A stretch of 64,000 bases of DNA, taken from assembly GCA_964537395.1 (NCBI GenBank), contig CAZIBN010000002.1, positions 14,301 to 78,300 of the forward strand. The letters are read 5' to 3'. This DNA comes from an uncultured Elusimicrobia bacterium (GTDB taxonomy: Bacteria > Elusimicrobiota > Elusimicrobia > UBA1565 > UBA9628). The notes beneath the pieces are model-generated. The model was not told where the DNA came from. It saw nothing but the letters and a program-made list of their open reading frames with translations, and did no database searches. A program made the translations under genes and the position numbers. Below, piece by piece: positions 28,012 to 52,310 of the stretch; position 1 is the stretch's first letter; every line of letters starts with the position of its first letter.

Positions 28012-29385
28012 GTGCTCGCGGGCCTCGTCGGGAGCGTCGTCGCCTCGGGGCTTCTTCTGAGAGGCGCATGGGACCTGTGGGCTCAGTCCTTGGTCCTCAT
28101 CGCGCTTCTGTCGGCCTTTGCGGCCTGGCTGTGCCTCCGGCTGGCCGCCGGCTGGCTTCCTCGTCCCGATCCCAAGATCCTTATCTGGGCCGCGGCGCTC
28201 GCCGCCCTCTCCGCGCTGTCCGCGTGGGCGAGCCCGGTGCCGGCCTACTCTCGCCCGGCCTGGGCCGCGGCGGCGGCGGGGTTGGCGTTGTTCCCGTTGG
28301 TCTCCGTGCTCGGCTCCGAGGACCGCGCGCGGGTCGAGAGGTTTCTGCGTGCGGCCGCGTGGATCCTGGTCCTGCTCGCGGTCTATCAGCGCCTTCATGG
28401 CGAGGGACGCCCCGCCGCGACGTTCCTTAACCAAAACGCGTTCGCCGGCGCGATCCTCCTGCTGCTCCCCATCGCGGCGCGCGCCGAAGATTGGGCGCTC
28501 GCCGGTGGGTTGCTGCTGTGCCTGTGGTGGGCGCGGTCCGTCGGGGCCTGGCTTGGGCTTGCTGTCGCCTTGATCCTGCACCGGCGCGCGGTGGGCCTCA
28601 TCGCCTTTTGGCTTGGCTCCATCGCGGGCTTCATCGGGCTTGTCGCCGCCTACGCCAAGATCCAATCGCCGGAGACCTTGCACCGCCTGGAGTGGTGGAA
28701 GGCGGCCTGGCGCATGGCGGCCGAAGCGCCTTGGCTCGGCCTTGGGCCCGGCGCGTACGCTTATGCGCTGCCGTCGCACGCGCCGGTCAGGCCCGAGCTG
28801 TCCACCTTGTTCGCGCATCAGCATTTTTTCGAAACGGCGGCGGAGCGGGGCTGGCCGTACGCCCTGCTTTGGATCGTCGGCCTGGCCGTGCTGCTCAGGC
28901 CCGCTCCCGCCGCGCGGCGATTCGGCCCCGTGGCGGCGTTGATCCACGGGCTCGTGGATTATGCGCTGTCCGTGCCCGGAGTGTTCTGGCTTTTCTGCGC
29001 GTCGACGGCGCTGGCCGCTCCCGAGTCGGGCCGCTCCGTCAACGTCCCGCTTCGCTGGCGCCCGGTCCTATGCGCCATCGTCCTTGCGGTGGCCGCCGCG
29101 TCCGGGGTTTTCGTCTGGCGCGGCTGGTCGGCCGATCGCCTGCGCGCACAGGCGGTCGTCGCCATCCGCGAGGGCCGTCTCGACGAGGCGGAGGGGAAGC
29201 TTGTAGCCTCCGAGATCTTGTCGCCGCATCCCGAGGCCGCGCGCTTCCGGGCGGAGCTCCTGCTGGCGCGCGGCGGGCCGGCGGCGGAAGCCGCCCTGCA
29301 CCTGAAGCGCGCGATCGCCCTCGATCCTTATCGCGCCTCGAACCAGGCTTTATTGGAAAAGCTTTCGGAGGCGCGTGAGCGCTGA
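28012..29385 (+). CDS. O-antigen ligase/PglL-like (Wzy_C) membrane protein with a C-terminal TPR-like tail
   Basis: 457 aa, GTG start. About 10 TM helices. Periplasmic loop WLGLGPGAYAYAL...LFAHQHFFETAAERGWP, typical of the O-antigen ligase family. The C-terminal ~90 aa are soluble and helical. Confidence 0.6.
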   Translation: MLAGLVGSVVASGLLLRGAWDLWAQSLVLIALLSAFAAWLCLRLAAGWLPRPDPKILIWAAALAALSALSAWASPVPAYSRPAWAAAAAGLALFPLVSVLGSEDRARVERFLRAAAWILVLLAVYQRLHGEGRPAATFLNQNAFAGAILLLLPIAARAEDWALAGGLLLCLWWARSVGAWLGLAVALILHRRAVGLIAFWLGSIAGFIGLVAAYAKIQSPETLHRLEWWKAAWRMAAEAPWLGLGPGAYAYALPSHAPVRPELSTLFAHQHFFETAAERGWPYALLWIVGLAVLLRPAPAARRFGPVAALIHGLVDYALSVPGVFWLFCASTALAAPESGRSVNVPLRWRPVLCAIVLAVAAASGVFVWRGWSADRLRAQAVVAIREGRLDEAEGKLVASEILSPHPEAARFRAELLLARGGPAAEAALHLKRAIALDPYRASNQALLEKLSEARER

Positions 29386-31327
29386 ACGGCATCAAGTCGC
29401 TCCGGAGGCCGTCATCGCCGCGGTGCTCGCGGCCGCCATCGTGGCACTCCTCGGCGGCGCGTGGGCGCGCGGCCTGTCGGTGTTCTGGAGCGACCTCACC
29501 TATCTGCATCAGGGCTGGCGCGCCGCGCCCGCCCTGCTCGTCGCGGCCGGGCGCGCGCCTCTCTGGGAGCCGTCGCTTTACTTCGGCATGCCGATGGCGG
29601 GCTCCATGCAGGGCGGCCTTTTTTATCCGGCGACGGTCTTCTATTATCTGTTCGGCTTTGCGACCGCGACCGCATTATTCCAGGCCATGCATTTGTTCAC
29701 GGCCGGCTGGCTGTGCGCGCTGTGGCTTCGTTCCTGCCGCCTGTCCTGGGGCGCGAGCCTTGGCGGGGCCTTCCTGTTCGCCTTTGGGGGCGTGATGATC
29801 GCGCGCCTTCCCTTCTTAAATCATCTCGCGACCTTGGCGTGGGCTCCCGCGCTGGCGCTCTTCTTCAGACGCCCCGTGCCGCTGGCGTTGGCGCTCACCT
29901 TGATGGTCCTCGCCGGCTATCCCACCTTCATTCCCGGGTGCGCCGCCGCCGCGTGGATCGCGGCCTATGCGTCGCGCTCCAAAGGCTGGTCCTGGCGCGC
30001 CGGCGTTGTCGATTGGGCCAAGGCGGGGCTCCTCGCGGGCGTATTGGCCGCGGCCCAGCTTCTCCCCGGCTTCGAGCTTGCGTCCCGCTCCCGCCGTTCA
30101 TCCGGCGTCGGCCTGGCGGAGGCTTTGACTTGGGGATTCACGCCGGGCGATCTCCTCCAATGGATCGGGCCGCTGGCCCTCGGGATGAAGAATTTCCATC
30201 CGTCGATCGATTGGACTATGTGCGTGTACCTCGGGCTCATCGGCGCTGCGGCTGCGGCGTATGGTGCTTCTATTTTACCGCGACGCCGCGCGCTGATTCT
30301 TGGCGTGGCCATAGCTTCCGTCGTGGTTCTGACGCTCGGCGCGTCGACCGCTCTCTCGTCGATGCTGTGGCGTGTGCTGCCGCCGCTGCGCCTCGTGCGC
30401 TACCCCGGGAACCTGGCCTATATCGCGATGCTTCCCCTGTCCCTCCTCGCGGCGGCGGGCTTTTCGAATCGGCGGGCGGGGCCGATGCTCGTGCTCGCGT
30501 CGGCGCTTGAGCTTTTGGTGCTCGGCCGGTCTTCGACGCCGCTCGCCACCCGGAGCTTGTTCGTCGAGCCGGGCCCGCTCGTGCGGACCTTGCAGGAGAG
30601 CCAGGGGGACGCGCGCTACCTGATCTCGCCGAAGGCCCTGCAGGCGTCGAGGGGCACGGACATCCTCGACTGGAAGCAGCGCCTGTACGGCCTCACGAAC
30701 GCGCCCTTTCGTTTGCGCGCGGCCGCGAACTTCGGCGAGCCGCTGGTCCCCGCGCCGTCGTACGCGGTGATGGACGCCCTGCTGAGCCTGCCGAGCGCCG
30801 ACGCGGCGGCGGACTGGATGCCCTGGATCGGGGCGTCGCGCCTCCTGACCCCAGAGCGAGTGGATTCGGTGCGCTTGACAGCCGAAGGGCGCGCGCTGTG
30901 GGAAATCTCGAAAGTCCGCGGCCCGGTGTCGCTTGCCTACCAACTGACGTCTAAGGAGGGCTCCGCACTGCCCGCCGTATGGCCGCCGGCGGCACCGACC
31001 GCCGCGCGTTCGCCGCTCACGGTCCGCCGCGAGCGTGAGGACCGTTTTGACGTATCCGGTGATGGCGCGGGCTGGGTCTATGTGTCGGAGCCCCGATTCC
31101 CGGGGTGGAAAACAGTTCTATCCGTTCCGAGCGGTGAACGGGAGGTTGTTGTGGAACCGGCGCTGGGCGCGTTTCAGAAGGTCGAGACGCCGTCCGGGCC
31201 CTGGACCTTGCGCTGGCGCTATGAGCCCGGGCCGTGGCGTCTCGGGTTGCTGCTCGCGTGCTTGTCGTGGATAATGCTCGCGCGGTCTTGGTATCATCGA
31301 GCCGTCGTCTCTGGAGAGATCCGATGA
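29375..31327 (+). CDS. YfhO-like GT-C membrane glycosyltransferase (paralog 1)
   Basis: 650 aa. Polytopic. N-terminal motif GRAPLWEPSLYFGMPMAGSMQGGLFYP, as in the YfhO family. Large C-terminal periplasmic domain. Confidence 0.6.
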   Translation: MSAERHQVAPEAVIAAVLAAAIVALLGGAWARGLSVFWSDLTYLHQGWRAAPALLVAAGRAPLWEPSLYFGMPMAGSMQGGLFYPATVFYYLFGFATATALFQAMHLFTAGWLCALWLRSCRLSWGASLGGAFLFAFGGVMIARLPFLNHLATLAWAPALALFFRRPVPLALALTLMVLAGYPTFIPGCAAAAWIAAYASRSKGWSWRAGVVDWAKAGLLAGVLAAAQLLPGFELASRSRRSSGVGLAEALTWGFTPGDLLQWIGPLALGMKNFHPSIDWTMCVYLGLIGAAAAAYGASILPRRRALILGVAIASVVVLTLGASTALSSMLWRVLPPLRLVRYPGNLAYIAMLPLSLLAAAGFSNRRAGPMLVLASALELLVLGRSSTPLATRSLFVEPGPLVRTLQESQGDARYLISPKALQASRGTDILDWKQRLYGLTNAPFRLRAAANFGEPLVPAPSYAVMDALLSLPSADAAADWMPWIGASRLLTPERVDSVRLTAEGRALWEISKVRGPVSLAYQLTSKEGSALPAVWPPAAPTAARSPLTVRREREDRFDVSGDGAGWVYVSEPRFPGWKTVLSVPSGEREVVVEPALGAFQKVETPSGPWTLRWRYEPGPWRLGLLLACLSWIMLARSWYHRAVVSGEIR

Positions 31328-33174
31328 CCCGCCGGGACCTCATCGTCGTCGGGGCCCTCGCGGCCGCCGTGCTTGCGCTGACCGCCTCCGTGTGGGCTCA
31401 TCCCGGCCAGGCGTTTTTCAACCACGGCGACCTGTATGCCTACCATTGGCCGCTTCGCCATCATACGGCGGCGGCGCTGATCGAAGGCCGGCTCCCTTTC
31501 TGGAACCCGTACATCATGCTCGGTGCTCCCCACGCGGCGAATCCTCAGGCCGCCTTGTTCTATCCTGCCGGCATTCTCGGCTTTCTGCTGCCTGTCATGA
31601 CGTCCCTGGCCTGGGATCAGATCCTGCATCTGCTGTGGGCGGCGCTCGGCACATTTCTTCTCGCGCGCTTCGCACGGTTGCCCCGAGCCGCGGCCGCAGG
31701 CCTCGCGGCCGCTTACGCGCTCTCGCCCTTCCTGATCTACCGCGTGACCGCCGGCATCCCGACGCTTCTCGCGTCGATTTCCTGGATACCATGGGCCTGG
31801 CTTGCGTGGCTCGTCGGCTCCGCGCCGCTTTTGGCCGCCGTCTTCGCGCTCCAGTTCTTCTCCGGCCACCCGCAGTTCCTTGTCATCAACGCCGTCGGCA
31901 TGGGCGTGTTCGCCGCTTCAAAAACTTCTTTGCGCGCGACGAAGACGCTGCTTGCGGGCGCGGGAGGGGCGCTGGCCTTGGCCGCGGTGCAATGGCTGCC
32001 GACTCTCGAGCTGCTGCGCGGCTCCAACCGCTCGGCCTGGCCGGAGCAATTCCGGGCCGCCTACTCCCTGCGCCCGGCTGACCTTCTGATGTGGCTGTCT
32101 CCCGGCGCCCTTGGCACGCCGCTCAACGGCGGCTGGGGCGACGCGGTGTCCGTGTTCTATGAGAGCGGCGGCGTATGGCTTGGCTGCGTCATGCTGGCGC
32201 TTGCGGCCGGCGGCCTCCTGCGCGGGCGCTCGCGGCTGGGGCCGGTCCTTCTTGTCGTGCTCGGCGCCATTCTCGCGCTCGGCGCCAACGGCCCCATTGC
32301 CCCGCTTCTCAACGCACCGGGATTCTCCTATCTGCGCACGCCTTCGCGCTGGTCCTTCCTTTCCCTGTGGGGCCTCTGGCTTCTCGCGGGCGCTGGCGCG
32401 CGCGTGGTGTTCTCGGCCCCCTCGCAAAAGCGCGTGAAGGAAGCGCTTTCGCTCGTTCCGCTCATCGTGCTGGCGGAACTCGCCCTCTGGGACTCAGGAT
32501 TTCTCAAGTCCGCGAATGCACGCTCGTTCACGGCGGCGAGCCCTGCCGTGGTCGAGCGCCTGGCCGGCCGCTCCACGCGCATGCTCACCGATCCCGAGCT
32601 CGCCAATCCGAACAAGGCGGTCGCCTATCGGATGCGCAACGCCAACGGCTACGAGGCATTTTATCCCGGATCCGCCGCGCAGTGGGCTTATCTGGCAGAG
32701 GGTAAGCCGGCCGCGGACCCAAGCTGGGTGCTCGTCTCTCGATGGAAGTCGGAGGCGGCAACGCGAGCGGGCGTGTCCGCCCGCTTATCCAGGGAAGGCA
32801 TCGAGGAGCGGGCCGACGCCTGGCCGCTGGCCACCTTTCTTGACGCAAAAGGCGGACGCGTGACGCCCGATCCTCTTCTCGTGATCGACCGCCCCGAGAG
32901 TTGGCGGGTGACCGGGGCCGTGCCGAAGGGCGCCGTTGCGGTGGCGCTCGCTGAGACGCGTTGGCCGGGCTGGAGCGCCGCCTTGGATGGTCGCGCCGCG
33001 CCGCTCGCTCCGTGGGGCCCCGCTTTTCATCTCGTGAAGTTGGATCGGGGCGCCTCGGCGCTCGAATTAAGCTTCGATTTCTCACCGACGCGGTGGTTCT
33101 GGTGGGCCGCGCTGTCGGCGGCGGCCTGGGCGCTGTGGTTCGCGGCGCTTGCCCTGCGCATGGAGCCTTCATGA
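31324..33174 (+). CDS. YfhO-like GT-C membrane glycosyltransferase (paralog 2)
   Basis: Start at the ATG at 31324 (ATGA overlap), 616 aa. GRLPFWNPYIMLGAPHAANPQAALFYP. Same architecture as paralog 1. Confidence 0.6.
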   Translation: MTRRDLIVVGALAAAVLALTASVWAHPGQAFFNHGDLYAYHWPLRHHTAAALIEGRLPFWNPYIMLGAPHAANPQAALFYPAGILGFLLPVMTSLAWDQILHLLWAALGTFLLARFARLPRAAAAGLAAAYALSPFLIYRVTAGIPTLLASISWIPWAWLAWLVGSAPLLAAVFALQFFSGHPQFLVINAVGMGVFAASKTSLRATKTLLAGAGGALALAAVQWLPTLELLRGSNRSAWPEQFRAAYSLRPADLLMWLSPGALGTPLNGGWGDAVSVFYESGGVWLGCVMLALAAGGLLRGRSRLGPVLLVVLGAILALGANGPIAPLLNAPGFSYLRTPSRWSFLSLWGLWLLAGAGARVVFSAPSQKRVKEALSLVPLIVLAELALWDSGFLKSANARSFTAASPAVVERLAGRSTRMLTDPELANPNKAVAYRMRNANGYEAFYPGSAAQWAYLAEGKPAADPSWVLVSRWKSEAATRAGVSARLSREGIEERADAWPLATFLDAKGGRVTPDPLLVIDRPESWRVTGAVPKGAVAVALAETRWPGWSAALDGRAAPLAPWGPAFHLVKLDRGASALELSFDFSPTRWFWWAALSAAAWALWFAALALRMEPS

Positions 33175-34163
33175 GCCGAAAAAAAATAATATCAGGCGTC
33201 GTCGCCTTCGCCATCACGGGGTTCTTCCTGTGGCTGGCCCTGCGCAAGGTCGAATTCGCGGCTCTCGGCTCGGCGCTGTCGTCGGCGCGCCTGGTCTGGC
33301 TGATCCCGATGGTCGTCATCATCTATGTCGACCTGCTCGTACGGGCCGTGCGCTGGCGTGTTCTGCTTTCACGCACGCGCGACCTGCCAGCGCCGGTGTG
33401 GGACCTTTTCAAGCTTTCGGCGATCGGACTTGCTGTCAACAACGTCCTGCTGCTTCGCCTCGGCGAGCTCGCGCGCGCGGGCCTAGCGGCCCGGCGCCTG
33501 GGCATTCCCGTCGCCGCGTCGCTGGCGAGCGTGGCCATCGAGCGCGCACTCGACGTGGCCGCCCTTCTGACCATCTTCGTGCTCGCCACCCGGCTCGCGC
33601 CCGGCATCGTCCCGGCGCAGGTCGTGCAGGCGGCGATGCTGCTGCTCGCGGGCGCGATCGGGGCTTTGATCGTCCTGGCCGCGGCGGAGAGCTCGCTCGA
33701 GCCCGAGGGCTTCGCCGAGCGCCGCCTGCGCCCCTGGCCGCGCGTGCATCATTTCGTCGAACAGCTGGCGCTGGGCGCCGCGGTGCTGCGCTCGCCCGTC
33801 TCGGCGGCGAAGGCCGCGCTGCTGAGCCTCGTGCTGTGGTCCGTGGACGCGGCCTTGTATTGGGCGGCGGCACACGCGATGAGCCTCGGCGCCATCATGG
33901 ATTATCCTCGCGCGGTCCTGACCCTCTCGTGGGCGGGCGCGATCTCCGCGATCCCGGCCGCTCCCGGCGGGATCGGCACGTTCGAGGCTTTCGTCGCGTC
34001 GATCCTGCACACCTTCGGCGCCACGCCGGAGATCGCGCTGGCCTACGCGCTTCTGACGCACATGATCATGTATCTTCTGGTGACGGTGACGGGGCTCGTG
34101 TTCCTGTCGCGCGAGGGCGTGTCGCTCGCGCAGCTGGCCGAGCAGGTCGAGCAAAAAAAATGA
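33171..34163 (+). CDS. Flippase-like membrane protein (LPG_synthase_TM/UPF0104 family)
   Basis: Start at the ATG at 33171 (ATGA overlap), 330 aa. About 8 TM helices. N-terminal LWLALRKV...LLVRAVRWRVLL pattern of the family. Confidence 0.55.
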   Translation: MSRKKIISGVVAFAITGFFLWLALRKVEFAALGSALSSARLVWLIPMVVIIYVDLLVRAVRWRVLLSRTRDLPAPVWDLFKLSAIGLAVNNVLLLRLGELARAGLAARRLGIPVAASLASVAIERALDVAALLTIFVLATRLAPGIVPAQVVQAAMLLLAGAIGALIVLAAAESSLEPEGFAERRLRPWPRVHHFVEQLALGAAVLRSPVSAAKAALLSLVLWSVDAALYWAAAHAMSLGAIMDYPRAVLTLSWAGAISAIPAAPGGIGTFEAFVASILHTFGATPEIALAYALLTHMIMYLLVTVTGLVFLSREGVSLAQLAEQVEQKK

Positions 34164-35185
34164 AGCTGAATCTCCTGGCGATTCTGGCGTGCCCTGTCTG
34201 CGGCGGCGATCTCAAGTTCGCCGTCCTCGAGGCGTACCCGCGCCATGACGCCGAGATCGAGGAGGCGGTGCTCGCCTGTAAGCTGTGCGCCCGTGAGTAT
34301 CCGGTGACCGGCGGCGTGCCGCGCCTGCGTCCGCCGAGCCCTGTCGCGCGCGCGACCGCCAAGACGCGTGACGCGTTCGGCTGGGAGTGGCTGCGCTATC
34401 CCGGGTCTCTTCCCGGCGACAAGGAGACGTTCCTCGAGGAGACTTTGCTGCCGCCGCATGAGTTCGAGGGGAAGCTCGTCCTCGACGCGGGCTGCGGCAT
34501 GGGCCGCTACAGCGCCGTCGCTCTCTCTTTAGGCGCCGAGGTCGTGGCGGTCGACATGTCCGAGAGCCTGCAGCGGGTCGTGGCTCTCGCTCAAACGCAG
34601 CCCAAGCTCCACCCTGTCGAGGCCGACCTGCTCCATCCGCCTTTCAAGAAGGGCATCTTCGACGTCGCCTACAGCCAGGGCGTGCTGCACCACACCGCTG
34701 ACACGCACGCCGCGTTCAAGGCCGTAGCGGCGCTCATCAAGCCGAGAGGCCTTTTGTCCGTGTGGCTGTACGGCAAGGCTGGGCGGTACTCCGACTTCGC
34801 GTCGAACCCGCTCAAGCCCGGCCGCGACTGGATCGCGCGGTACCGCCGCCTGGCGTGGTGGATCGTCCTCCTCCGCCACATCCTCAGCGACTTCGTGCGC
34901 GTGTTCACGACGCGCATGCCCGTCTCCATCGTCTACGCGCTTTGCTATCCGCTGACCTGGCTCGGCGTCGTGCCCGGCATCAAGTGGTTCACCTATTCCG
35001 TGGATCCGCGCTATCAGGTCCGTCTCATCGAGAACTTCGATTGGATCTCGCCGCCCTATCAGTGGCACCACACGAAGGAAGAGCTTCTTCGCTGGTACAG
35101 CGAAGAGGGCTTTTCGGTCGTCAACGTCCTGCCGCACGGGCTCGTGCCCAAGCCCGGGGTCCTCGGCCGCAAGAACTCGAAATGA
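34160..35185 (+). CDS. Class I SAM-dependent methyltransferase with an N-terminal Trm112-like zinc ribbon
   Basis: Start at the ATG at 34160 (ATGA overlap), 341 aa. CPVCGG...CKLC zinc ribbon and SAM motif I VLDAGCGMGRYS. Confidence 0.75.
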   Translation: MKLNLLAILACPVCGGDLKFAVLEAYPRHDAEIEEAVLACKLCAREYPVTGGVPRLRPPSPVARATAKTRDAFGWEWLRYPGSLPGDKETFLEETLLPPHEFEGKLVLDAGCGMGRYSAVALSLGAEVVAVDMSESLQRVVALAQTQPKLHPVEADLLHPPFKKGIFDVAYSQGVLHHTADTHAAFKAVAALIKPRGLLSVWLYGKAGRYSDFASNPLKPGRDWIARYRRLAWWIVLLRHILSDFVRVFTTRMPVSIVYALCYPLTWLGVVPGIKWFTYSVDPRYQVRLIENFDWISPPYQWHHTKEELLRWYSEEGFSVVNVLPHGLVPKPGVLGRKNSK

Positions 35186-36297
35186 AGGCTCCGCGCACCC
35201 GGGTCGTCATGGTGAGCGCCGGCTTCTGGCCCGCCGTGGGGGGCGCAGAGCGGCAGGCGCTTGAGCTTTCGCGTGAACTGCGCGCGCGCGGCACGGACGT
35301 GATCGTGCTCACGCGCCGTATCGGCGGCGCCGCTCCCCGCGAGGACGTCCACGGCGTGCCGGTGCGGCGGCTGCCGGTGTTCGGGACCGGCGCGCTCGAC
35401 TCGCTGAGCTTTCTTTTCGGCGCGCTCGGCTGGCTGCTCAAGCATGAGGGCGGGTACGACGCGATCCACGCGCACCTCGCCGGCTCGCCCGCGCTCGCGG
35501 CGGCCCTGGCCGGGCGCCTGCTTGGGAAGCCCGTCCTTGTCAAGCTCGGCGGGGGGCGCGGCATCGGCGAGCTCGCGGCTTCTTCCCGCACGCGCCTCGG
35601 CCGTCTGAAGCTCCGTCTTCTGGCTCTTCTTAATCCCCGCTTTCTCGCCGTGGTCCCCGACCTTGCCGCCGAGGCGCGCGAGCATCTCGGCGGTGCGGCG
35701 ATCGAGGTCCTGCCCAACGGCGTGGACGTGAACCGCTATAAGCCCGTCTCTGCGCAGGAGAAGCAGGTCCTGCGCGCCCGCCTCGGCTGGACGGGAACGG
35801 TATTCCTTTACACGGGACGGCTTTCGTGGGAGAAGCGCCTGCCTTGGTTCTCGAAGATCTGGAACGAAGCGACGAAGGGCCGCGAAGCGACCTTGATCCT
35901 CGTCGGCGAAGGCGCCGAGGCCATCCCTCAGGACGGTCGCGTCCGCGTCCTGCCTTCCGTCGACGACGCGGCCGAGCTCTACGCCGCGGCCGATGCGTTC
36001 GTCCTGCCTTCGGTGTCCGAAGGCCTGTCGAACTCTCTGCTCGAGGCGATGGCCTCGGGCCTCCCGGTGATCGCGAGCGCGGTCGGCGGGACCGCCGAAA
36101 CGCTCGTAGACGGCGTCACGGGGCTGATGTTCGCGCGCGACGACGACAAGGCCGCGGCGGCCTGCGTGCGCCGCGTGCTCGACGAGCCGGAGCTGGCCGC
36201 GCGGCTGGGAGCCGGCGCCCGACGCGAGTGCCTGGAGCGCTACGCGCTGTCCCGGGTCGCGGCGCGCCTCGAGGAGCTGTACCGGGGAGCGCCGTGA
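35182..36297 (+). CDS. GT4-family glycosyltransferase
   Basis: Start at the ATG at 35182 (ATGA overlap), 371 aa. GGAERQ N-domain and C-terminal EGLSNSLLEAMASGLPVIAS...E motif. Confidence 0.85.
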   Translation: MKAPRTRVVMVSAGFWPAVGGAERQALELSRELRARGTDVIVLTRRIGGAAPREDVHGVPVRRLPVFGTGALDSLSFLFGALGWLLKHEGGYDAIHAHLAGSPALAAALAGRLLGKPVLVKLGGGRGIGELAASSRTRLGRLKLRLLALLNPRFLAVVPDLAAEAREHLGGAAIEVLPNGVDVNRYKPVSAQEKQVLRARLGWTGTVFLYTGRLSWEKRLPWFSKIWNEATKGREATLILVGEGAEAIPQDGRVRVLPSVDDAAELYAAADAFVLPSVSEGLSNSLLEAMASGLPVIASAVGGTAETLVDGVTGLMFARDDDKAAAACVRRVLDEPELAARLGAGARRECLERYALSRVAARLEELYRGAP

Positions 36298-36332
36298 GAT
36301 CGGACTTTGGTATCTTTCTCTTTTAAGAGAAC

Positions 36333-38337: not shown

Positions 38338-38357
38338 AACTGTTTCCGGAAACAGCT
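38338..38357. repeat. 20-nt repeat AACTGTTTCCGGAAACAGCT (16-bp perfect palindrome core) abutting the marC stop
   Basis: Core CTGTTTCCGGAAACAG at 38340-38355. The second copy, with one mismatch, is at 39018-39037. The non-palindromic flanks AA and CT are identical in both copies. Confidence 0.8.
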
Positions 38358-38967
38358 ACCCGAGCTTTAAGGCGGACAGGATCAGTTGGACGCCGATGGC
38401 GGCCAACAGCAATCCCATCAGACGCGTGATGATGTTGAGGAGGGTGGGGGAGAGCTTTTTGGCGCTGTCGGCCGCCAAGGTCAGCACCCAGTAGCTGATA
38501 AAAGCTACTAAGGCGATCGCCACGTAGAAGATGGCCTTCTGTGGGAGGTTGGTGGCGCGTCCGGCGAGCACGATCGAGGTGGTGATGGCGCCGGGGCCCG
38601 CCAGGAGGGGGACCGCCAGAGGCGTGATCGCGATGTCATCCTTGCTCATGCCCTCGGCGAACTCCTCGGGCGTCTCCTTCATCGGAGATTTTTGGGCGCG
38701 GATCATGTCGAGCGAGGACAGCAGGAGCACGAGACCGCCGGCGATCTGGAAGGCGGGCAGGGTGATCCCGAACAGCTTGAAGATCGCCGGGCCGAGGGCC
38801 GCGAACGCGCCCATGACGCCCGCGCAGGTGATGCAGGCCGTGCGTGCCATGCGGCGGCGCTGCTCGGCGGTGTCGCGGGCCGTCATCGCGAGGAAGGTCG
38901 GGACCGCAGCGAAGGGGTCCACGATCGCGAAGAGGGAGCCGAACGTCAGGAACGCGTATTCCATCAT
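38356..38967 (-). CDS. marC: MarC-family (UPF0056) integral membrane protein
   Basis: 203 aa. FGSLFAIVDPFAAVPTF N-terminal signature and 6 TM helices. It is the only minus-strand gene inside the plus-strand glycan cluster. Confidence 0.85.
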   Translation of the reverse strand: MMEYAFLTFGSLFAIVDPFAAVPTFLAMTARDTAEQRRRMARTACITCAGVMGAFAALGPAIFKLFGITLPAFQIAGGLVLLLSSLDMIRAQKSPMKETPEEFAEGMSKDDIAITPLAVPLLAGPGAITTSIVLAGRATNLPQKAIFYVAIALVAFISYWVLTLAADSAKKLSPTLLNIITRLMGLLLAAIGVQLILSALKLG

Positions 38968-45809: not shown

Positions 45810-46970
45810 ATGAACGAGACCTTGTCGATCGTCATTCCCGCGTATAACGAGGAAGACTCTGTCGACGATATTTTAAAGCGCTGCCTCGACGCCCGAGCCG
45901 TGCTGATGCGGGACGCCGGCCTTTCCGCCGTGGACGTCGTCCTTGTCGACGATGGCTCCCGCGACAAGACGCAGGAAAAGGCCCGGCGCTGGAACGAGGT
46001 CAAGCTCGTCGTCCATGAGAAGAACAAGGGCTACGGCGCCGCGCTGATGACCGGCTTCCGCGCCTCCTCCGGAGATTATCTGTCGTTCCTCGACGCCGAC
46101 GGCACCTGCGATCCGCTCGCCTTCGCCGGCCTCATCCAGGCGCTCCGGCGGGAGGATGCTGATATGGCCGTGGGCGCGCGCCTGCATGCCGCCTCCTCCA
46201 TGCCCGCCATCCGCGCCTTCGGCAATCGCCTCTACGCGCTGCTTCTGCGCAGCCTGACCGGGGTGCGCATGACCGACACCGCGAGCGGCATGCGCGTGTT
46301 CAAGCGCGCCCTCCTGCCGCGCCTCGCACCCCTGCCGACGGGCCTGCACTTCACGCCGGCGATGACCGCGCGTGTCGCCTGCATGGGCGCCACCCTCGTG
46401 GAGCATCCGATCCCCTATTCCGACCGGGTCGGCCAGTCGAAGCTCTCCGTCCTGCAGGACGGCGTGCGCTTCCTCCGCGTGATCCTCGGCACCGTCTTCG
46501 CCTATTTCCCGATGCGGGTGTTCGCCCCTTTGGCCGCCGTATGCCTCGTGGTCGCGGCCGGCCTGGCCTACACGCCCGCGAGCGTCTACCTCCGCGGCTT
46601 CGGGCTCGAGGACGACATGATCTACCGTCTGCTCACGGTGCTGACCTTGTCCGCGTGCGGCACGATCTTCGCGGCGATCGGCCTGCTCGCGCAGAAGGCC
46701 TCGAACACGGCCCTCGGACGGCCCGCCTCGTGGCTCGATCGTCCGCGCGTGCGCGAGACGGCGGGCGCGGCCGGCGGCGCGCTGTGGCTGATCGGAGCCG
46801 GGGTCAACTGGCCGACCGTCGTCGAGTACGCGCGGACCGCGCACATCACGCGCCACTGGGGCTGGGTGCTCGCCGGCGCGATCGCGGTCATCTGCGGCAC
46901 CGTGCTCGTCTCGCTCTCGATCGCGCTCGGCGCCTTCGCGCACCTTCCGACGCGGGAGGACGCTCCGTGA
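45810..46970 (+). CDS. GT2 polyprenol-phosphate sugar synthase-like protein (GtrB/ArnC-like) with four C-terminal TM helices
   Basis: 386 aa. LSIVIPAYNEE, LVDDGSRDKT, LDADGT, then a hydrophobic C-terminal third. Confidence 0.75.
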   Translation: MNETLSIVIPAYNEEDSVDDILKRCLDARAVLMRDAGLSAVDVVLVDDGSRDKTQEKARRWNEVKLVVHEKNKGYGAALMTGFRASSGDYLSFLDADGTCDPLAFAGLIQALRREDADMAVGARLHAASSMPAIRAFGNRLYALLLRSLTGVRMTDTASGMRVFKRALLPRLAPLPTGLHFTPAMTARVACMGATLVEHPIPYSDRVGQSKLSVLQDGVRFLRVILGTVFAYFPMRVFAPLAAVCLVVAAGLAYTPASVYLRGFGLEDDMIYRLLTVLTLSACGTIFAAIGLLAQKASNTALGRPASWLDRPRVRETAGAAGGALWLIGAGVNWPTVVEYARTAHITRHWGWVLAGAIAVICGTVLVSLSIALGAFAHLPTREDAP

Positions 46971-47953
46971 GCTTCTGGGACCGCAAGAAGGTCCTCGTCA
47001 CCGGCGGCGGCGGCTTCATCGGCAGCCACGTCGTCGAACAGCTGCTGAGAAGGCACAGGGAGGTCCGTGTCACCGTGGCCGGGCGCATGAGCAAGGAGAA
47101 CAAGCGCAATCTCTCCGAGGTCCTGCGCAATCCCTATCTGCGCATGATCAAGGGCGACCTGCGTAATCCTATTTTCTGCCGCCGCGCCTGCAAGGGCCAG
47201 GACGTCGTGCTCAACGTCGCCGGCGTCGTGGGCGGAGTGGGCTACAACAGCAAGCACCATGGCAGCCTGTTCCGCGACAACATGACCTTGCAGCTCAACG
47301 TGATCGAAGCCGCGCGGCTGGAGAACGTCGCGCGCTATCTTGTCGTGAGCACGGCCTGCGTCTATCCGCGCGTCTGCGAGATCCCGACTCCTGAGAGCGA
47401 GGGGTTTCGCGATGCACCGGAACTGACCAACCGCGGCTACGGCTGGTCCAAGCGCATGGGCGAGTATCTCGGCCAGGCCTACGCCGAGGAATTCGGCATG
47501 AGTGTGGCTATCGTCCGGCCGTACAACGCGTACGGCCCGCGCGACCACTTCGACCCCGAGAAATCCCACGTCATCGCCGCCTTGGTCCGCCGCGTCTGCG
47601 AGGGGGAGAGCCCGCTGAAGGTCTGGGGCGACGGCAAGACCACCCGCGCGTTCCTCTACGTGGACGACTTCGCGCGCGGCCTGCTCGACGTGGCCGAGAA
47701 GTATCCGAAGGCAGACCCGGTGAACATCGGTTCGTCGCAAGAGGTCTCGGTCAAGGACCTGGCCAAGGCGGTTTTGCGGGCGGCCGGTGCCGAGGAAACC
47801 AAGCTCATATTCGATCCATCAAAACCCTCGGGACAGCCCCGAAGGGCATGCGACACGACGAAGTCCCGCAAGGTCCTCGGCTTCAAGGCCGAGATCGGCT
47901 TGGACGAAGGCCTGCGGCGCACGATTGCCTGGTACCGGGAGAACCTGCAGTGA
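46967..47953 (+). CDS. NAD-dependent sugar epimerase/dehydratase (extended SDR)
   Basis: GTG start at 46967 (GTGA overlap), 328 aa. VLVTGGGGFIGSH and the catalytic YGWSK. The track ORF from 46541 is an off-frame-like extension overlapping the previous gene. Confidence 0.8.
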   Translation: MSFWDRKKVLVTGGGGFIGSHVVEQLLRRHREVRVTVAGRMSKENKRNLSEVLRNPYLRMIKGDLRNPIFCRRACKGQDVVLNVAGVVGGVGYNSKHHGSLFRDNMTLQLNVIEAARLENVARYLVVSTACVYPRVCEIPTPESEGFRDAPELTNRGYGWSKRMGEYLGQAYAEEFGMSVAIVRPYNAYGPRDHFDPEKSHVIAALVRRVCEGESPLKVWGDGKTTRAFLYVDDFARGLLDVAEKYPKADPVNIGSSQEVSVKDLAKAVLRAAGAEETKLIFDPSKPSGQPRRACDTTKSRKVLGFKAEIGLDEGLRRTIAWYRENLQ

Positions 47954-48690
47954 GAGGCAAGCGGCTGTTGGTCCTGCTCACCTTCAACGAGATCGAGGCC
48001 CTGCCCAAGATCTTCGACCGCCTTCCGCTCTCCGCGGCCGACGAGGTGATGGCCATCGACGGCGGCTCCAAGGACGGCACGGTCGAGTTCCTCGAGTCCA
48101 AGGGCTTGAAGGTCGTCACCCAGCCGCGCCGCGGCCGCGGCGTCGCCTTTCGCCTCGCCCTCGAGCTGACGGACGCGGAGACGATCTGCTACTACAGCCC
48201 CGACGGCAACGAGGACCCCGCCGATATCCCCAAGATATTCGAGAAGATCGAGGCGGAAGGCCAGGACCTCGTCGTCGCCTCGCGCATGATGAAGGGCGCC
48301 TACAACGAGGAGGACATCCACTGGTTCCGACCGCGCAAATGGGTCAACCAGCTCTTCACCTTGGCTGCCAACCTGCTCTGGAACCGCGGCCCGTACGTCG
48401 AGGACACGATCAACGGCTTTCGCGCCGTGCGCGCTGAGTCGCTGCGGCGCTGCGCCTGTGATGCCGACGGCTTTCCCATCGAATACCAGATGTCGATCCG
48501 CATGATGAAATTGAATTTCGTGATAGGGGAGATGCCGACGCACGAATACCCGCGTCTCGGCGGCCAGAGCACCGCTGAGTCCTGGCCCACCGGGGTCATC
48601 TTCGTCAAAACCCTCCTGCGCGAGATGTCGATGGGACGCCGCGTGACCGCGGCCGATGACGAAAAGGTAGAATTGACCCCCCATGGCTGA
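47950..48690 (+). CDS. GT2-family glycosyltransferase (DPM1-like)
   Basis: GTG start at 47950 (GTGA overlap), 246 aa. LLVLLTFNE, AIDGGSKDGT, YSPDGNEDP, ASRMMKG. Confidence 0.65.
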   Translation: MRGKRLLVLLTFNEIEALPKIFDRLPLSAADEVMAIDGGSKDGTVEFLESKGLKVVTQPRRGRGVAFRLALELTDAETICYYSPDGNEDPADIPKIFEKIEAEGQDLVVASRMMKGAYNEEDIHWFRPRKWVNQLFTLAANLLWNRGPYVEDTINGFRAVRAESLRRCACDADGFPIEYQMSIRMMKLNFVIGEMPTHEYPRLGGQSTAESWPTGVIFVKTLLREMSMGRRVTAADDEKVELTPHG

Positions 48691-51274
48691 CCTACGCCGC
48701 GAACAGCGCGCAGACGCGGAAACCTTCGCCCACCGGGCGATCATCACCTGGCTTCCGCTCCTCTACCTGCTCATCTCCTCGCTCTTCTTCCTGCGCACCT
48801 ACGATTCCGCGCAGGTGAAGATCTCGATGATGCAGATGGGCGGCCTGGGCCTGCTGACGATGTGGCTCGTGCGCCTGGCCGTCGCCGGCCGCCACGCGCT
48901 CAATCGGGAAGACCTCGTCTGCCTTTCGCCTTTCCTCGCCTACCTCTTCTGGGGCGTGTTCTCCTACATGAAGGCGCCGTATCATATGTCGTCCACCGAT
49001 TTTTTCCTGCGCCACTTGTTCTATATGATCGCGGCGCTGATCACGATCTACGAGTTCGACGAGGCCGCCATCGCGCGCCTGTTCAAGGTCATGATCTGGA
49101 CCGCGTGGATCGCGATCGGCTACGGCGCCCTGCAGTTCGTGGACAATTCGATGTTCCCGGTCGGGCCCGGCAAGGGCATCGACCCGTTCGTCTGGCGCGG
49201 CGCGTTTTCCGACCGTGTGTTCTCGACGTACGGCAACCCCAACTTCTACGGCGACTACCTCGTCATCATGTTCCCGATCCTGCTCACGCAGTGGTTCAAG
49301 ACGCGGAGGTGGAGCCTGGTCGTCCTCATCGGCCTGCTCCTGCTCAGCCTCATCAAGACGGGGACCAAGGGCGCGTGGCTCGGCTTTGCGATGGTGTGCT
49401 TCGTCTTCGGCGTGATCGCCCTTGTGTTCTTTCCCGAGCAGAGCAAGCCTTACCGTAAGCGCCTGCTGGGCGTCGTCGGCGGCCTGGTGCTGGCCTTCGT
49501 CGGCTACACGGCCAAGGATCTGAGCGGACGCGTCGTCTCGATCAACTTCCGCCTGTTCACCTGGGAAGCGACCTGGGAGATGATCCGCACCAATCCCTGG
49601 ACCGGCTCGGGCGTAGGTTCCTTCCCGCCGCTTTACCCGGCCTTCCGCCGCCCCGCGATCTTCCACATCGAGGGCAAGCACAACACGGAGACCGATCACG
49701 CCGAGAACGAGTATCTGGAGCAGTTCTTCGACAACGGCATCCTGGGCTTCGGCATCTTCATCTGGCTCATCCTGAGCACCTTGGTCGTGGGCTTCCGCTC
49801 GCTCGGGCAGCTCACGACGACGGCCATGCTCAAGGACGGGCGCCCGCCGCCGCGCGCCTTCGACCTGATCGGCGTGATCGTCTCGTTCATGGGCATGCTC
49901 GGGCACAACTGCTTCGACGTGAGCCTGCGCTTCGTGTCATCGGGCGTCTACCTGGGGCTGCTGTCGGGCCTCATCGTCAATGTCGCGCGCGGCAAGGCGC
50001 TCTATGAGCTCCACGCGCGCGAGGCGGCGCCGGCCGCCGACCCCGCCGAAGCGTCTTCGCTGTGGGCGACGTTATCGGAGATGCTGATCTGGCCGCTGCG
50101 GCTCGCCGCGGCCGGCGGCGTTCTCTATCTCGCTTTCTTCAAGGATTGGTCCCTGTTCAAGATGCTCCCGTTCGCGGGCATGTTCGGCGAGTTCTGCATG
50201 CTCCAGGGCCCGCTTTCGCGCGTGCCGGGCGGCGGCGAGCTTCTGCAGTGGTGGCTCGCCTGGGGCGTCTTCGGCGGCTGCATGCTCTGGCTCGGCTGGG
50301 TCATGATCCGCCTGTGCATCCTCTCCGAGAATCCCGTCGTTCCGTTGATCGTGCTCGCGATGCTCGCGCCGCTGTACCAGTTCTGGGGCTACTTCAAGGC
50401 CGATATCCACCACAACGTGGCCATCTACTTCTCCAAAGAGCGCCAGTGGGAGCCCGCCGTCGGCAACTATCTGATCGTCAACAAGCTCAACCCTGACTTC
50501 GTGATGTCGAAGTACTTCTTGGGTAATGTTTTTAACGACCGCTTCAACATGACGAAGGCGTATCTGCCGAACTGGGGCGACACCGGGAACGTCCCGCACG
50601 ACGACTACGAGCGCGCGATGTACTGGTACGAGGAAGTCCGTAAGCTCGCGCCGAACTACGTGCAGATGCATCATCAGATCGGCAACCTGCATCTGCGCCG
50701 CGCCGAATGGGCGACCAACAACGGCCGCCCCGAGGAAGCCCAGAAGTATCTCGATCTGGCGCTCATGCGCTTCAAGTTCTACAACCAGATCGACCCTGTC
50801 TTCGCGCCGAACTTCTACCGCACGGCGCAGATCCACATGATCCGCAAGGAGTACGCCCTCGCGGTGAAGACCTACCAGGCCCTCATCGACGCGCAGGGCT
50901 GCGCTGTGGAGCCGTCCTTGCTCGCCAAGCCGTGGCTGAGAAGCACCATCCTCTCGTATCAGAGCTACGAAGAGCTGGACGGCCTGTGGGCCCATCACCA
51001 TGTCGGTCGCGCCCGGCCGCGGGAGTCCGCGGAGGCCTACACGAGCATGGCCAACGCCCTGTTCATGGACAACCTCTTCCTGGAGGCTGAGCAGGCATAT
51101 CGTATCGCGCTCTCCTACGACCAGAACTTCGACATGGCCAAAAAGAACCTCGAGGTCACCTATCGCCGTGCGCAGGCCGACGGCCGTCTCAAGCCCTTCA
51201 TCGTGCCGGCCGGCACGGTGATCATCCCCGGCAAGCCTGTCCCGACCGGCTGGACGATCGCTCCCAAGAAGTAG
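48683..51274 (+). CDS. O-antigen ligase/polymerase-like (Wzy_C) membrane protein fused to C-terminal TPR repeats
   Basis: 863 aa. More than 12 TM helices. Loop NPWTGSGVGSF...TDHAENEYLEQFFDNGILG, typical of the family. The C-terminal ~300 aa carry TPR-like repeats. Confidence 0.65.
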   Translation: MADLRREQRADAETFAHRAIITWLPLLYLLISSLFFLRTYDSAQVKISMMQMGGLGLLTMWLVRLAVAGRHALNREDLVCLSPFLAYLFWGVFSYMKAPYHMSSTDFFLRHLFYMIAALITIYEFDEAAIARLFKVMIWTAWIAIGYGALQFVDNSMFPVGPGKGIDPFVWRGAFSDRVFSTYGNPNFYGDYLVIMFPILLTQWFKTRRWSLVVLIGLLLLSLIKTGTKGAWLGFAMVCFVFGVIALVFFPEQSKPYRKRLLGVVGGLVLAFVGYTAKDLSGRVVSINFRLFTWEATWEMIRTNPWTGSGVGSFPPLYPAFRRPAIFHIEGKHNTETDHAENEYLEQFFDNGILGFGIFIWLILSTLVVGFRSLGQLTTTAMLKDGRPPPRAFDLIGVIVSFMGMLGHNCFDVSLRFVSSGVYLGLLSGLIVNVARGKALYELHAREAAPAADPAEASSLWATLSEMLIWPLRLAAAGGVLYLAFFKDWSLFKMLPFAGMFGEFCMLQGPLSRVPGGGELLQWWLAWGVFGGCMLWLGWVMIRLCILSENPVVPLIVLAMLAPLYQFWGYFKADIHHNVAIYFSKERQWEPAVGNYLIVNKLNPDFVMSKYFLGNVFNDRFNMTKAYLPNWGDTGNVPHDDYERAMYWYEEVRKLAPNYVQMHHQIGNLHLRRAEWATNNGRPEEAQKYLDLALMRFKFYNQIDPVFAPNFYRTAQIHMIRKEYALAVKTYQALIDAQGCAVEPSLLAKPWLRSTILSYQSYEELDGLWAHHHVGRARPRESAEAYTSMANALFMDNLFLEAEQAYRIALSYDQNFDMAKKNLEVTYRRAQADGRLKPFIVPAGTVIIPGKPVPTGWTIAPKK

Positions 51275-51281: not shown

Positions 51282-52310
51282 CTAGGCGCCGGCGGCGCGT
51301 TTCGCGCGCAGGAGCGCGTTCTCAGTCGCGATCAGCGGATCGATGAGGTCATAGACGGCACGCTTCTCCGCGCTTGCCAGGACGCGATGGTGGCGCACAG
51401 TGAGCCAGGACTTGCGCGCCTCTTTTGCCGCGGCCAGAAGCGGCGCGGGTACGAGCGTCGCTTTGTAAACGGGCATGCTCTTCGCCTCGTCTCCGAGTTC
51501 CTTGAGCAGGAATTCCCGGGCCTTTGCGGGCTGGAGATTCTTGACGAGATAAGAGGCGATCTCGCGCACGATCTTCTTTTTCTCGGCGGCGAGTATGTCG
51601 GGCGGCGTGCCGCCGGCGACGAGCGCGGCCATGCCTTCGGGGTACTCCTCGAGCCACTTGTGCGTGACCTGGCCCTCATGGATGCGGCGGACCGCCAGGC
51701 GCTCGTAGATCACACCCACCTCGACGCCGTCGGCGAGCATGCGCGCATAGAGCTCGTTGTCGAGGATGACCATGTCCGAGCGGTAATGGCCGTACTTTTT
51801 ATACAGCGCGCGCGGGATCGCGAGATTCGTCGTGAGGTACGGCAGGAACTCCTCACCGACGGCGTAGTGACCGGGGACCTTGCCTTCCTCGATATTCATC
51901 CCGGGCGGGAACGCGGTGCCGATCAGGCGATCGTAACGGTGCAGCCAGCCGTCCGAAAAAACAAATCCGGCCTGCGGGCGGGCCTTGAAGAATTCGGCGA
52001 ATTTCTCCAGACGATTCAGCGTCCAAAAGTCATCGGAGTCTATGTTCGTGATCCACGTCCCCGTCGCCATCTCCAGGGCCATGTTGCGGCAGGCCATGTT
52101 CCCGATGTTCTTCGGGACGCGGGTATACTTGAAGCGCGGATCCTTGGTCCAGCCCTTGATCATCTCCGGCGTCTCGTCCATGGACCCGTCGTCGACGATC
52201 AGGACCTCGTAATCGCCGCAGGTCTGGCGCAGGACGGTGGACAGGGCCCCGGGCAGCATATGCGCCCGGTTGTAGGTGGGGAGGACGATCGAAAAGAGAG
52301 GCTCGCCCAT
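51282..52310 (-). CDS. GT2-family glycosyltransferase
   Basis: ATG at 52310 (the track uses GTG at 52313), 342 aa. FSIVLPTYNR, IVDDGSMDET, IDSDD. Confidence 0.8.
   Translation of the reverse strand: MGEPLFSIVLPTYNRAHMLPGALSTVLRQTCGDYEVLIVDDGSMDETPEMIKGWTKDPRFKYTRVPKNIGNMACRNMALEMATGTWITNIDSDDFWTLNRLEKFAEFFKARPQAGFVFSDGWLHRYDRLIGTAFPPGMNIEEGKVPGHYAVGEEFLPYLTTNLAIPRALYKKYGHYRSDMVILDNELYARMLADGVEVGVIYERLAVRRIHEGQVTHKWLEEYPEGMAALVAGGTPPDILAAEKKKIVREIASYLVKNLQPAKAREFLLKELGDEAKSMPVYKATLVPAPLLAAAKEARKSWLTVRHHRVLASAEKRAVYDLIDPLIATENALLRAKRAAGA

Follow-up and report, generated by a model that had tools for sequence, protein, structure and literature searches.

A glycan gene cluster behind pilMNOPQ in Elusimicrobiota combines a conserved core, possibly coupled to type IV pilus assembly, with a variable distal half

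The window analysed here is a stretch of 64,000 nucleotides from an uncultured Elusimicrobia bacterium, and its subject is a group of 19 glycan genes (g1-g19) located downstream of the type IV pilus genes pilMNOPQ. The source genome is a 3.69-Mb, 95%-complete metagenome-assembled genome (MAG) of the phylum Elusimicrobiota, in which the window lies on contig C2; below, C denotes contigs of this genome, L homologous loci, G genomes, and f families. Genes were mapped as open reading frames (ORFs) supported by G+C content at third codon positions (GC3), and families were assigned by Pfam and NCBIfam profiles. The genes pilM, pilN, pilO, pilP, and pilQ (23178..27994, plus strand) form a type IV pilus alignment and secretin operon (PilM_2 181 bits; Secretin 177 bits, with Secretin_N and AMIN), and their order was identical in every relative examined. 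The glycan genes are high-GC3 ORFs on the plus strand, except for g8 and g19 on the minus strand. They encode two Wzy_C proteins, two divergent YfhO-like glycosyltransferases of the GT-C class, one PMT_2 GT-C enzyme, three Dpm1/CsbB-like glycosyltransferases of family 2 (GT2), an MprF-type flippase-like protein, and several sugar-tailoring enzymes. The genes are tightly packed, with 17 nt between pilQ and g1, an 11-bp overlap between g1 and g2, seven ATGA/GTGA overlaps, and two 8-bp overlaps. Start positions were refined to 31324 for g3, 34160 for g5 (an ATGA start), and 39090 for g9, whose start at MDREIG is set by comparison with relatives. The long ORFs at 33149-35185 and 34762-36297 are out-of-frame N-terminal extensions of g5 and g6. 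A scan for promoters and terminators returned weak intragenic matches only and was uninformative on transcription units. All homologues of the cluster genes with an informative organism label came from Elusimicrobia or Elusimicrobiota, and a few were labelled only "MAG: bacterium".

The first gene after pilQ is g1 (28012..29385, +), which encodes a Wzy_C membrane protein of 457 aa scoring 41.3 bits against the Wzy_C profile (PF04932, cut-off 31.7 bits). It is followed by g2 (29375..31327, +), a divergent YfhO-like GT-C protein of 650 aa assigned by orthologue matches and model fold, and by its paralogue g3 (31324..33174, +), a second YfhO-like GT-C protein of 616 aa. The MprF-type flippase-like membrane protein g4 (33171..34163, +; 330 aa; LPG_synthase_TM 147 bits) precedes g5 (34160..35185, +), in which a Trm112-like zinc ribbon is fused to an S-adenosylmethionine (SAM)-dependent methyltransferase (Trm112p 31.8 bits, Methyltransf_11 61.9 bits), and the GT4 glycosyltransferase g6 (35182..36297, +; Glyco_trans_1_4 109 bits, Glyco_transf_4 78 bits). 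A 35-nt spacer (36298..36332), the site of a Wzx gene in close relatives, separates g6 from the AsnB-type glutamine amidotransferase g7 (36333..38261, +), which scored 325 bits against Asn_synthase and 624 bits against TIGR03108 (XrtA/PEP-CTERM amidotransferase), below the cut-off of 817.

The remaining genes begin with g8 (38356..38967, -), a MarC-family membrane protein (184 bits), and g9 (39090..40271, +), a DegT-family enzyme (312 bits) in which His replaces the Schiff-base Lys. Then come the soluble GT2 g10 (40273..41226, +; Glycos_transf_2 109 bits) and g11 (41223..41921, +), a Dpm1/AglJ/PpgS-like GT2 lacking a transmembrane (TM) segment. Pfam and NCBIfam profiles assigned g12 (41963-43087, +) as a radical SAM/SPASM protein and g13 (43106-44119, +) as an MftF-like GT2. 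The PMT_2 GT-C enzyme g14 (44112-45773, +) is followed by g15 (45810..46970, +), a GtrB/CsbB/ArnC-like GT2 with about four C-terminal TM helices (Glycos_transf_2 108 bits), and by g16 (46967..47953, +), a GDP-L-fucose-synthase-like epimerase/reductase of the short-chain dehydrogenase/reductase (SDR) type (Epimerase 197 bits). A second soluble Dpm1/AglJ-like GT2, g17 (47950..48690, +; AglJ 84 bits, Dol-P-hexose transferase 55 bits), precedes g18 (48683..51274, +), an IctB-like Wzy_C protein of 863 aa with a long TPR tail (Wzy_C 60.4 bits, TPR_2/TPR_1). The convergent GT2 g19 (51282..52313, -; Glycos_transf_2 106 bits) closes the cluster.

The gene list of the initial annotation, which had been made from the letters alone, thereby held at the level of the parts. 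The listed genes were all present as high-GC3 ORFs with families backed by both profile collections, the cluster adjoined pilQ, and the overlaps described at most junctions were seen. The profile matches also agreed with its assignments of AsnB, the Trm112-methyltransferase fusion, GT4, DegT, SDR, radical SAM, and the other GT2s. Its three polyprenol-phosphate-sugar-synthase-like GT2s (g11, g15, and g17) had AglJ, Dol-P-hexose transferase, PpgS, and ArnC as their best NCBIfam models, all below cut-off, in line with the assignment. Two descriptions needed qualification. Both proteins given as Wzy_C with TPR tails scored above the Wzy_C cut-off and g18 carried TPR repeats, but the tail of g1 was only TPR-like. 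Of the two YfhO-like and one GT39/ArnT-like enzymes, g14 passed the PMT_2 cut-off, while the label of g2 and g3, which had no direct profile match, rests on orthologues, paralogy, fold, and architecture.

Comparison with relatives defined a conserved core, g1-g7, ordered as pilQ, Wzy_C, two YfhO-like genes, and LPG_synthase_TM/GT4. Within the taxonomic order of the window's genome, pilQ and g1 stood upstream of g2 on the same strand in 60 loci. In these loci, the distance implied between the stop of pilQ and the start of g1 had a median of 8 nt and was 0-20 nt in 48 of them. Among the order-level loci that extended over 5 kb upstream, only three had no pilQ. When the best g2-like match was compared with the secretin in 26 genomes beyond the order, the secretin was found 0.1-10 kb upstream on the same strand in 20, and the exceptions were mostly contig ends. 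The lineages without g2-like genes include gut Elusimicrobia with small genomes. Regions fetched from nine further families (f9, f11, f13, f15, f19, f22, f23, f28, and f29) all had the same overall order after pilMNOPQ (13/13), namely 0-4 genes, one or two Wzy_C genes (some with TPR), a YfhO-like gene, sometimes a Dpm1-like GT2, and further genes. A second YfhO-like gene was present in 11 of these 13 regions, a GT4 in nine, and LPG_synthase_TM in three (f23, f28, and f29). In family f15, the Dpm1-like (g11-like) GT2 was placed between two YfhO-like genes. In G045 and G065, the gene string began with pilC, a pilin gene, and pilD, the pilin gene lying 6 kb upstream. Taken over at least 12 families, g1, g2, and g3 were kept with pilQ, and the GT4 (g6) stayed beside the core even in distant families. 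Judged by gene order, the linkage to pilQ is phylum-wide and the core can be assigned to the pilus operon. Since the pairing of pil genes with sugar enzymes was kept across the phylum, these enzymes probably glycosylate the pilus or something made with it. A literature search found no paper describing a pilQ-linked Wzy_C/YfhO-like arrangement.

The genes between pilQ and Wzy_C were inspected in one f15 locus (L099 of G005, 4582-9264). These extra genes are for a dehydroquinase of type I, an exported protein of 754 aa whose ends resemble FlgD_ig and Por_Secre_tail, a UPF0164 protein, and a TPR protein of 203 aa with about two predicted TM segments. A gene of about 203 aa before Wzy_C recurred in f13 and f15, with one or two predicted TM segments; the copy scanned for domains was that of G005.

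Both Wzy_C proteins keep the residues of the catalytic loop. In g1, the loop motifs R..WW, G.GPG, and AH (of FAHQHF) were at least 95% conserved among 49 orthologues, and g18 carries the periplasmic-loop motif HAENEYLEQFFDNG. The g1 family is small: of 1.84e9 representatives, 425 matched at E<1e-3. Its tail is short and TPR-like, and Pfam TPR repeats were found in distant orthologues, not in the window copy. The best NCBIfam match of g18 was IctB (TIGR00947), with 80 bits over positions 37-400 of 425 against an equivalog cut-off of 366. Orthologues of g18 were 59-89% identical among the listed Elusimicrobiota homologues and down to 43% identical at phylum distance. One copy was found in each of the eight genomes tested, and only in G090 did it share a contig with g2. 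By these comparisons, g18 occurs as a single copy throughout the phylum and is tied to the core in the window's family only; with 43-89% identity across the phylum, it is far more conserved than serotype-variable Wzy polymerases. The whole genome encodes 11 Wzy_C proteins above the cut-off and two weaker ones, several of them in reading frames of 600-900 aa, which is an unusual expansion of paralogues.

The window copies of g2 and g3 had no match in Pfam or NCBIfam. However, YfhO (PF09586) was matched by 11 of 25 g2 orthologues (best E 3.5e-6), and distant pilQ-linked g2-like homologues reached 19.7-25.7 bits against a cut-off of 28.5. The two window proteins aligned with each other by BLASTP over 631 columns (27% identity, E 4e-13) and share a loop-1 motif, DL.Y.H; D40 of g2, in loop 1 just after TM1, was nearly invariant. 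An AlphaFold2 model of g2 (pLDDT 72, pTM 0.73) starts with a helical bundle, the TM region ending near residue 390, continues with a beta-rich domain at 489-616, and closes with one TM helix at 621-645. The layout of g3, with multiple TM segments and a C-terminal TM helix, was the same. This resembles YfhO, in which a large extracytoplasmic domain lies between the last two TM helices (PMC5836110). The top Foldseek matches of the g2 model in the PDB were all GT-C enzymes, namely AftD (E 2e-7), AftA, Pmt4, DPY19, and ArnT, so that the model shows a GT-C fold for g2. A g2 profile searched against the sequences of solved structures returned nothing meaningful, and the fold search alone was informative. 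The label YfhO-like was considered justified for g2 and g3 because of their paralogy, the matches of 11/25 orthologues, the GT-C matches of the model, and the YfhO architecture. GT2 partners of the CsbB/GtrB type are encoded in the window (g11, g15, and g17). The third GT-C enzyme, g14, matched PMT_2 (PF13231) with 29.9 bits against a cut-off of 26.1 and has an acidic NADEP motif after TM1.

Among the GT2s, g11 scored 104 bits against AglJ (TIGR04182), 68 against Dol-P-hexose transferase, and 47 against PpgS, all below cut-off. g15 scored 97 bits against AglJ and 70 bits against ArnC over positions 7-291 of 316, has its TM segments at 224-371, and was linked to the core across the order with 42-56% identity. 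On the strength of these profiles, g11 is a candidate polyprenol-phosphate-sugar synthase and g15 a candidate undecaprenyl-phosphate-sugar synthase. g4 consists of LPG_synthase_TM only, with no synthase domain, and passed the cut-off of the "flippase-like domain" model TIGR00374 (45.7 against 43.2 bits), making it a candidate flippase for lipid-linked sugars. Because no GtrA-family protein (PF04138) was matched in the whole 95%-complete genome at E<=0.01, g4 is the only flippase candidate in the cluster. The GT4 g6 scored 72.6 bits against the NCBIfam GlcNAc-PG synthase model, below cut-off, and g19 was present in G090, G072, G078, and L034.

Two of the sugar-tailoring genes suggested a specific product. 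His215 of g9 aligned with the catalytic Lys of perosamine synthase 3BN1 and was conserved in two relatives, which makes g9 a candidate pyridoxamine-phosphate-dependent sugar 3-dehydratase of the ColD/E1 type. g16 scored 200 bits against the Fcl model NF047922, and its best PDB matches were GDP-L-fucose synthase (164 bits) and GDP-mannose 3,5-epimerase. A route to a GDP-3,6-dideoxyhexose through g9 and g16 is plausible from these similarities.

Comparison with relatives did not sustain the proposal that the 24 kb forms one supercluster or system. The set linked across the order was g1-g7 plus g15 and g16. In a relative with 80% identity in g2, a 231-aa methyltransferase gene occupied the place of g12-g14 between g11 and g15; g12-g14 is therefore a lineage-specific replacement. 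In a relative with 59% identity in g2, different genes followed DegT. Orthologues of g14 (75-81% identity) were found in four relatives within a locus ordered ArsC, GT2, PMT_2, g14, SDR, GFO, and further on GT2, PMT-like, and WecA. g14 is single-copy in the window's genome, whose own ArsC locus lacks it. This second GT-C locus (C88:6528-12653, outside the window) encodes ArsC, a 402-aa PMT_2 protein, a GT2, a PMT-like 653-aa protein, a WecA-like Glycos_transf_4 protein, and a DAO oxidase. By these comparisons, the gene for the PMT_2 enzyme g14 came from an ArsC-linked locus, and the 24 kb is a mosaic of an old core and a variable, recently shuffled distal half. For annotation, the conserved core of the "24 kb supercluster" and its shuffled accessory genes should be treated separately.

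The absence of export genes, which the initial annotation had noted, also needed qualification. No Polysacc_synt (Wzx), Wzz, ABC2_membrane, or Bac_transf match was found on the window's contig, so the observation itself stood, but the lack of Wzx is not a design feature, as close relatives carry one inside the cluster. The rest of the genome encodes three Wzx-like proteins, one Wzz/Wzc, Wza, two Bac_transf proteins, and one ABC2_membrane protein. A complete classical polysaccharide locus lies at C39:11481-25794 (outside the window), with a BBP2_2 porin, Wza (Poly_export and SLBB), Wzc (Wzz, GNVR, and P-loop), Wzy_C, a 303-aa membrane protein, DUF4838, Wzx (Polysacc_synt_3), GT4, a Bac_transf phosphoglycosyltransferase, and GT2. 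The junction between GT4 and AsnB was scored in 70 loci, comprising 62 species-representative loci, the window, L004, L005, and five genome regions, and a g2 tree was built from the 62 whose g2 match was of sufficient length. A Polysacc_synt (Wzx) gene of about 497 aa lay between GT4 and AsnB in L001, L002/3, L005, and 11 further loci, and was absent from the window, L004, L037, L040, L041, and L043. In the tree, the window fell in a well-supported clade of 29 rows, with Wzx present in the early branches of the clade and absent in six of the 12 crown members, implying at least two losses. In the distant order-level genomes G090, G072, G092, and G078, AsnB directly followed GT4. On this tree, the missing Wzx is thus a recent and recurrent loss from a former insertion site, which occurred at least twice including the window's lineage, and its absence in one genome cannot be taken as a property of the pathway. 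An assembly error was rejected as the explanation, given the same GT4-AsnB junction in the independent assemblies L004, L037, L040, L041, L043, and G090; the spacer was nearly identical in the window and L004. We also considered whether a Wzx on C4 was the relocated in-cluster gene. It was only 37% identical to the in-cluster Wzx of relatives and sits in a mini-locus of its own (C4:10589-15407, outside the window) with a radical SAM/SPASM protein, a methyltransferase, and Glyco_trans_1_2, and is probably a paralogue.

Several known systems resemble parts of the cluster. In the CsbB-GtcA-YfhO and GtrB-GtrA-Gtr* systems, a sugar is loaded onto undecaprenyl phosphate by a GT2, carried across the membrane by a flippase, and handed on outside the cytoplasm by a GT-C enzyme (PMC5836110; PMC11127046). 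g15, g11, and g17 would be the counterparts of the synthase, and g2, g3, and g14 of the GT-C enzyme; the f15 arrangement of a GT2 between two YfhO-like genes likewise recalls the csbB-yfhO pairing (PMC5836110). Unlike those systems, the window's genome lacks GtrA and has an MprF-type LPG_synthase_TM protein in its place, which in turn lacks the C-terminal lysyl-phosphatidylglycerol synthase domain of bifunctional MprF. Its host, unlike that of CsbB-GtcA-YfhO, is a diderm without teichoic acids, the similarity to YfhO is remote, and the genes lie in a pilus operon. The pilus context has its precedent in Pseudomonas aeruginosa, where a Wzy_C enzyme (TfpO/PilO) and a GT-C enzyme (TfpW) encoded in pilus gene clusters use lipid-linked periplasmic donors (bioRxiv 10.1101/2020.04.19.049825; 10.1101/150227). 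However, tfpO and tfpW follow pilA whereas the window genes follow pilQ, and the likeness is one of enzyme class. The window also has both enzyme classes together, along with its own synthases, a flippase candidate, and a sugar pathway. With the PglL O-oligosaccharyltransferases, g1 and g18 share the Wzy_C catalytic domain and possibly protein acceptors (PMC3643930; PMC9239064), but they lack PglL_A and Wzy_C_2 and have TPR or TPR-like tails, which PglL has not. The function of IctB, the best NCBIfam match of g18, is to our knowledge itself not settled. g18 is single-copy and well conserved like IctB of cyanobacteria (TIGR00947), and its NPNF is close to the cyanobacterial NPNL signature (PMC4594306); it differs in scoring far under the equivalog cut-off and in having an extra TPR tail of about 300 aa. 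The GT4, GT2s, nucleotide-sugar tailoring enzymes, and Wzy_C are as in classical Wzx/Wzy loci for O-antigen or exopolysaccharide (EPS), as is the Wzx of close relatives. In contrast to those loci, the window lacks Wzx, Wzz/Wzc, Wza, and an initiating transferase, which are found together on C39 with their own Wzy_C.

The reading we favour, at about even odds, is a periplasmic glycosylation line that uses lipid-linked sugars and is coupled to the assembly of type IV pili, pilins being the likeliest acceptor. In such a line, nucleotide sugars would be tailored in the cytoplasm by the ColD-like dehydratase g9, the Fcl-like reductase g16, the AsnB g7, the methyltransferase g5, and the radical SAM enzyme g12. 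A lipid-linked oligosaccharide would be built by the GT4 and GT2 enzymes g6, g10, g13, and g19, while the Dpm1/CsbB-like g11, g15, and g17 would charge undecaprenyl phosphate with single sugars. The donors would be flipped to the periplasm, for which g4 is the candidate here and Wzx may serve in relatives, with one possibly acting in trans in this genome. In the periplasm, single sugars would then be transferred by the YfhO-like pair g2/g3 and by g14, the imported PMT_2 enzyme, and units linked to undecaprenyl diphosphate would be transferred or joined by the Wzy_C proteins g1 and g18. The acceptor would most likely be a component of the type IV pilus, for which pilins offer the precedent: they are glycosylated by the Wzy_C enzyme TfpO and the GT-C enzyme TfpW, which protects against phage (bioRxiv 10.1101/2020.04.19.049825; 10.1101/150227). 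We infer which donors and which acceptor are used and that g4 serves as flippase; given how tightly and how widely across the phylum the core is tied to pilQ, an acceptor related to the pilus is the best guess. The initial reading of a multi-branch extracytoplasmic glycosylation system is retained in its parts, which provide for several branches of polyprenol-phosphate sugar and GT-C enzyme and for two Wzy_C proteins, but not as a single system; its link to pili gained much strength from the position of the core after pilQ throughout the phylum. On the favoured reading, the region would be an old extracytoplasmic glycosylation module of the Elusimicrobiota, transcriptionally welded to pilMNOPQ, onto which a variable set of sugar genes and extra transferase genes accreted in this family.

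A number of observations weigh against the pilus-coupled line. The evidence for it is all comparative, and shared descent, in place of function, could explain part of the conservation of gene order in a single phylum. The window contains no pilin gene, and the seven pilin-like ORFs of the genome lie on other contigs, none shared with any Wzy_C paralogue, the contigs being short; their sequences had no obvious Ser/Thr-rich tail, which was uninformative. A TfpO/PilO gene directly follows the major pilin gene, and g1 follows pilQ instead. Neither PglL_A (PF15864) nor Wzy_C_2 (PF11846) was found in g1 or g18 at E<=0.01, hydropathy counting was ambiguous on the side of the membrane on which their TPR tails lie, and no initiating phosphoglycosyltransferase is encoded in the cluster. 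The variable distal half, the Wzx of relatives, and the sugar genes all resemble an O-antigen locus, since genes for AsnB, a dehydratase like ColD, and an SDR like Fcl are typical of O-antigens; the earlier statement that this is not a standard O-antigen locus agrees with the lack of Wzx, Wzz, and an initiating transferase but not with the sugar genes.

The strongest alternative that these points suggest, which we consider possible though doubtful, is an envelope glycan resembling lipopolysaccharide (LPS)/O-antigen or capsule with Gtr-like periplasmic decoration. There, g1 or g18 would be a WaaL-type ligase or a Wzy-type polymerase acting on lipid A-core or a polymer, branch sugars would be attached once export is complete by the YfhO-like and PMT_2 enzymes, and the position after pilQ would reflect co-regulation of the envelope. 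The organism makes lipid A, because LpxC is encoded in the window (3159-3974, minus strand; 299 bits), and three-component periplasmic decoration of O-antigen is established (PMC11127046). Close relatives have a Wzx inside the cluster, the distal half varies among relatives as O-antigen loci do, and the GDP-3,6-dideoxyhexose suggested by g9 and g16 is a typical O-antigen sugar. Yet the cluster has neither Wzz nor an initiating transferase, a complete classical Wza/Wzc/Wzy_C/Wzx/phosphoglycosyltransferase locus already exists on C39, and the in-cluster Wzx was repeatedly lost with the remainder of the cluster intact. Moreover, g1-g3 stayed with pilQ over at least 12 families; genes for Wzy and WaaL, in contrast, are normally hypervariable and located in LPS loci. 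The tight coupling of the core to pilQ, not to pilA, would also fit a surface or secreted polysaccharide or glycolipid that is made or modified by the core and needed by type IV pili as an anchor or retraction trigger (cf. Myxococcus EPS), or a glycosylation of the secretin or alignment proteins, with the TPR tail of g1 docking on PilQ or its partners. TPR modules do occur on or beside the Wzy_C proteins (in f13 and f15 as the separate protein of about 203 aa), and the GT4 and the MprF-like flippase could make and flip a glycolipid. We nevertheless hold this to be improbable, as PilQ is the sole export component in the core and known YfhO-type GT-C enzymes decorate polymers and proteins and make no free polysaccharide. 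That the neighbourhood means nothing, with unrelated glycan modules inherited together after pilQ, would agree with a distal half demonstrably pieced together from different origins, but is very hard to reconcile with a median gap of 8 nt in 60 loci and the same order in at least 12 families despite extensive rearrangement downstream.

A more specific form of the pilus-coupled line, which we put forward only tentatively, is one built into the pilMNOPQ operon, in which pilins, or else the secretin, are modified during assembly by a TPR-tailed Wzy_C protein together with a tandem of YfhO-type GT-C enzymes, all of them fed by the Dpm1/CsbB-like synthases and the MprF-type flippase. If true, these would be the first YfhO-type protein glycosyltransferases and the first MprF-like flippase for polyprenol-linked sugars, in a case of phylum-wide pilus glycosylation. 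Pilin glycosylation is known from a few proteobacteria, where it alters pilus properties and blocks pilus-specific phages. If it is fixed in the pilus operon throughout a phylum that is mostly uncultivated, it can be ancient and integral to the machine and not a strain-level add-on. None of the enzymes represents a new class; the novelty lies in the operon context, in the occurrence of YfhO-like enzymes in a diderm, and in the candidate flippase of MprF type. It provides candidates for the role of YfhO-like GT-C enzymes in diderms and for the flipping of undecaprenyl-phosphate sugars without GtrA.

Some minor observations concern single genes and assemblies. The marC gene g8, the only minus-strand gene inside the cluster, was confined to the close clade and absent in G090, G072, G092, G144, and G078. 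A natural g3::g4 fusion was suggested by a 997-aa call in L005 (11953-14946) and rejected as a frameshift, because the join crosses an out-of-frame Arg/Gly-rich stretch before the g4 part; an in-frame fusion was found in 0/57 loci. In L001 (CP096137.1, a "complete" 3.8-Mb Elusimicrobiota MAG), pilN was 128 aa, g1 was uncalled, and the Trm112-methyltransferase and GT4 genes were each in two pieces, which suggested frequent frameshift errors in that assembly. Finally, L038 (CALRXP010000062.1) is labelled "Candidatus Endomicrobium trichonymphae", and its g2 orthologue, 76% identical to that of the window, nested in the window's crown clade of mostly groundwater MAGs; from this placement, the taxonomic label looks wrong.

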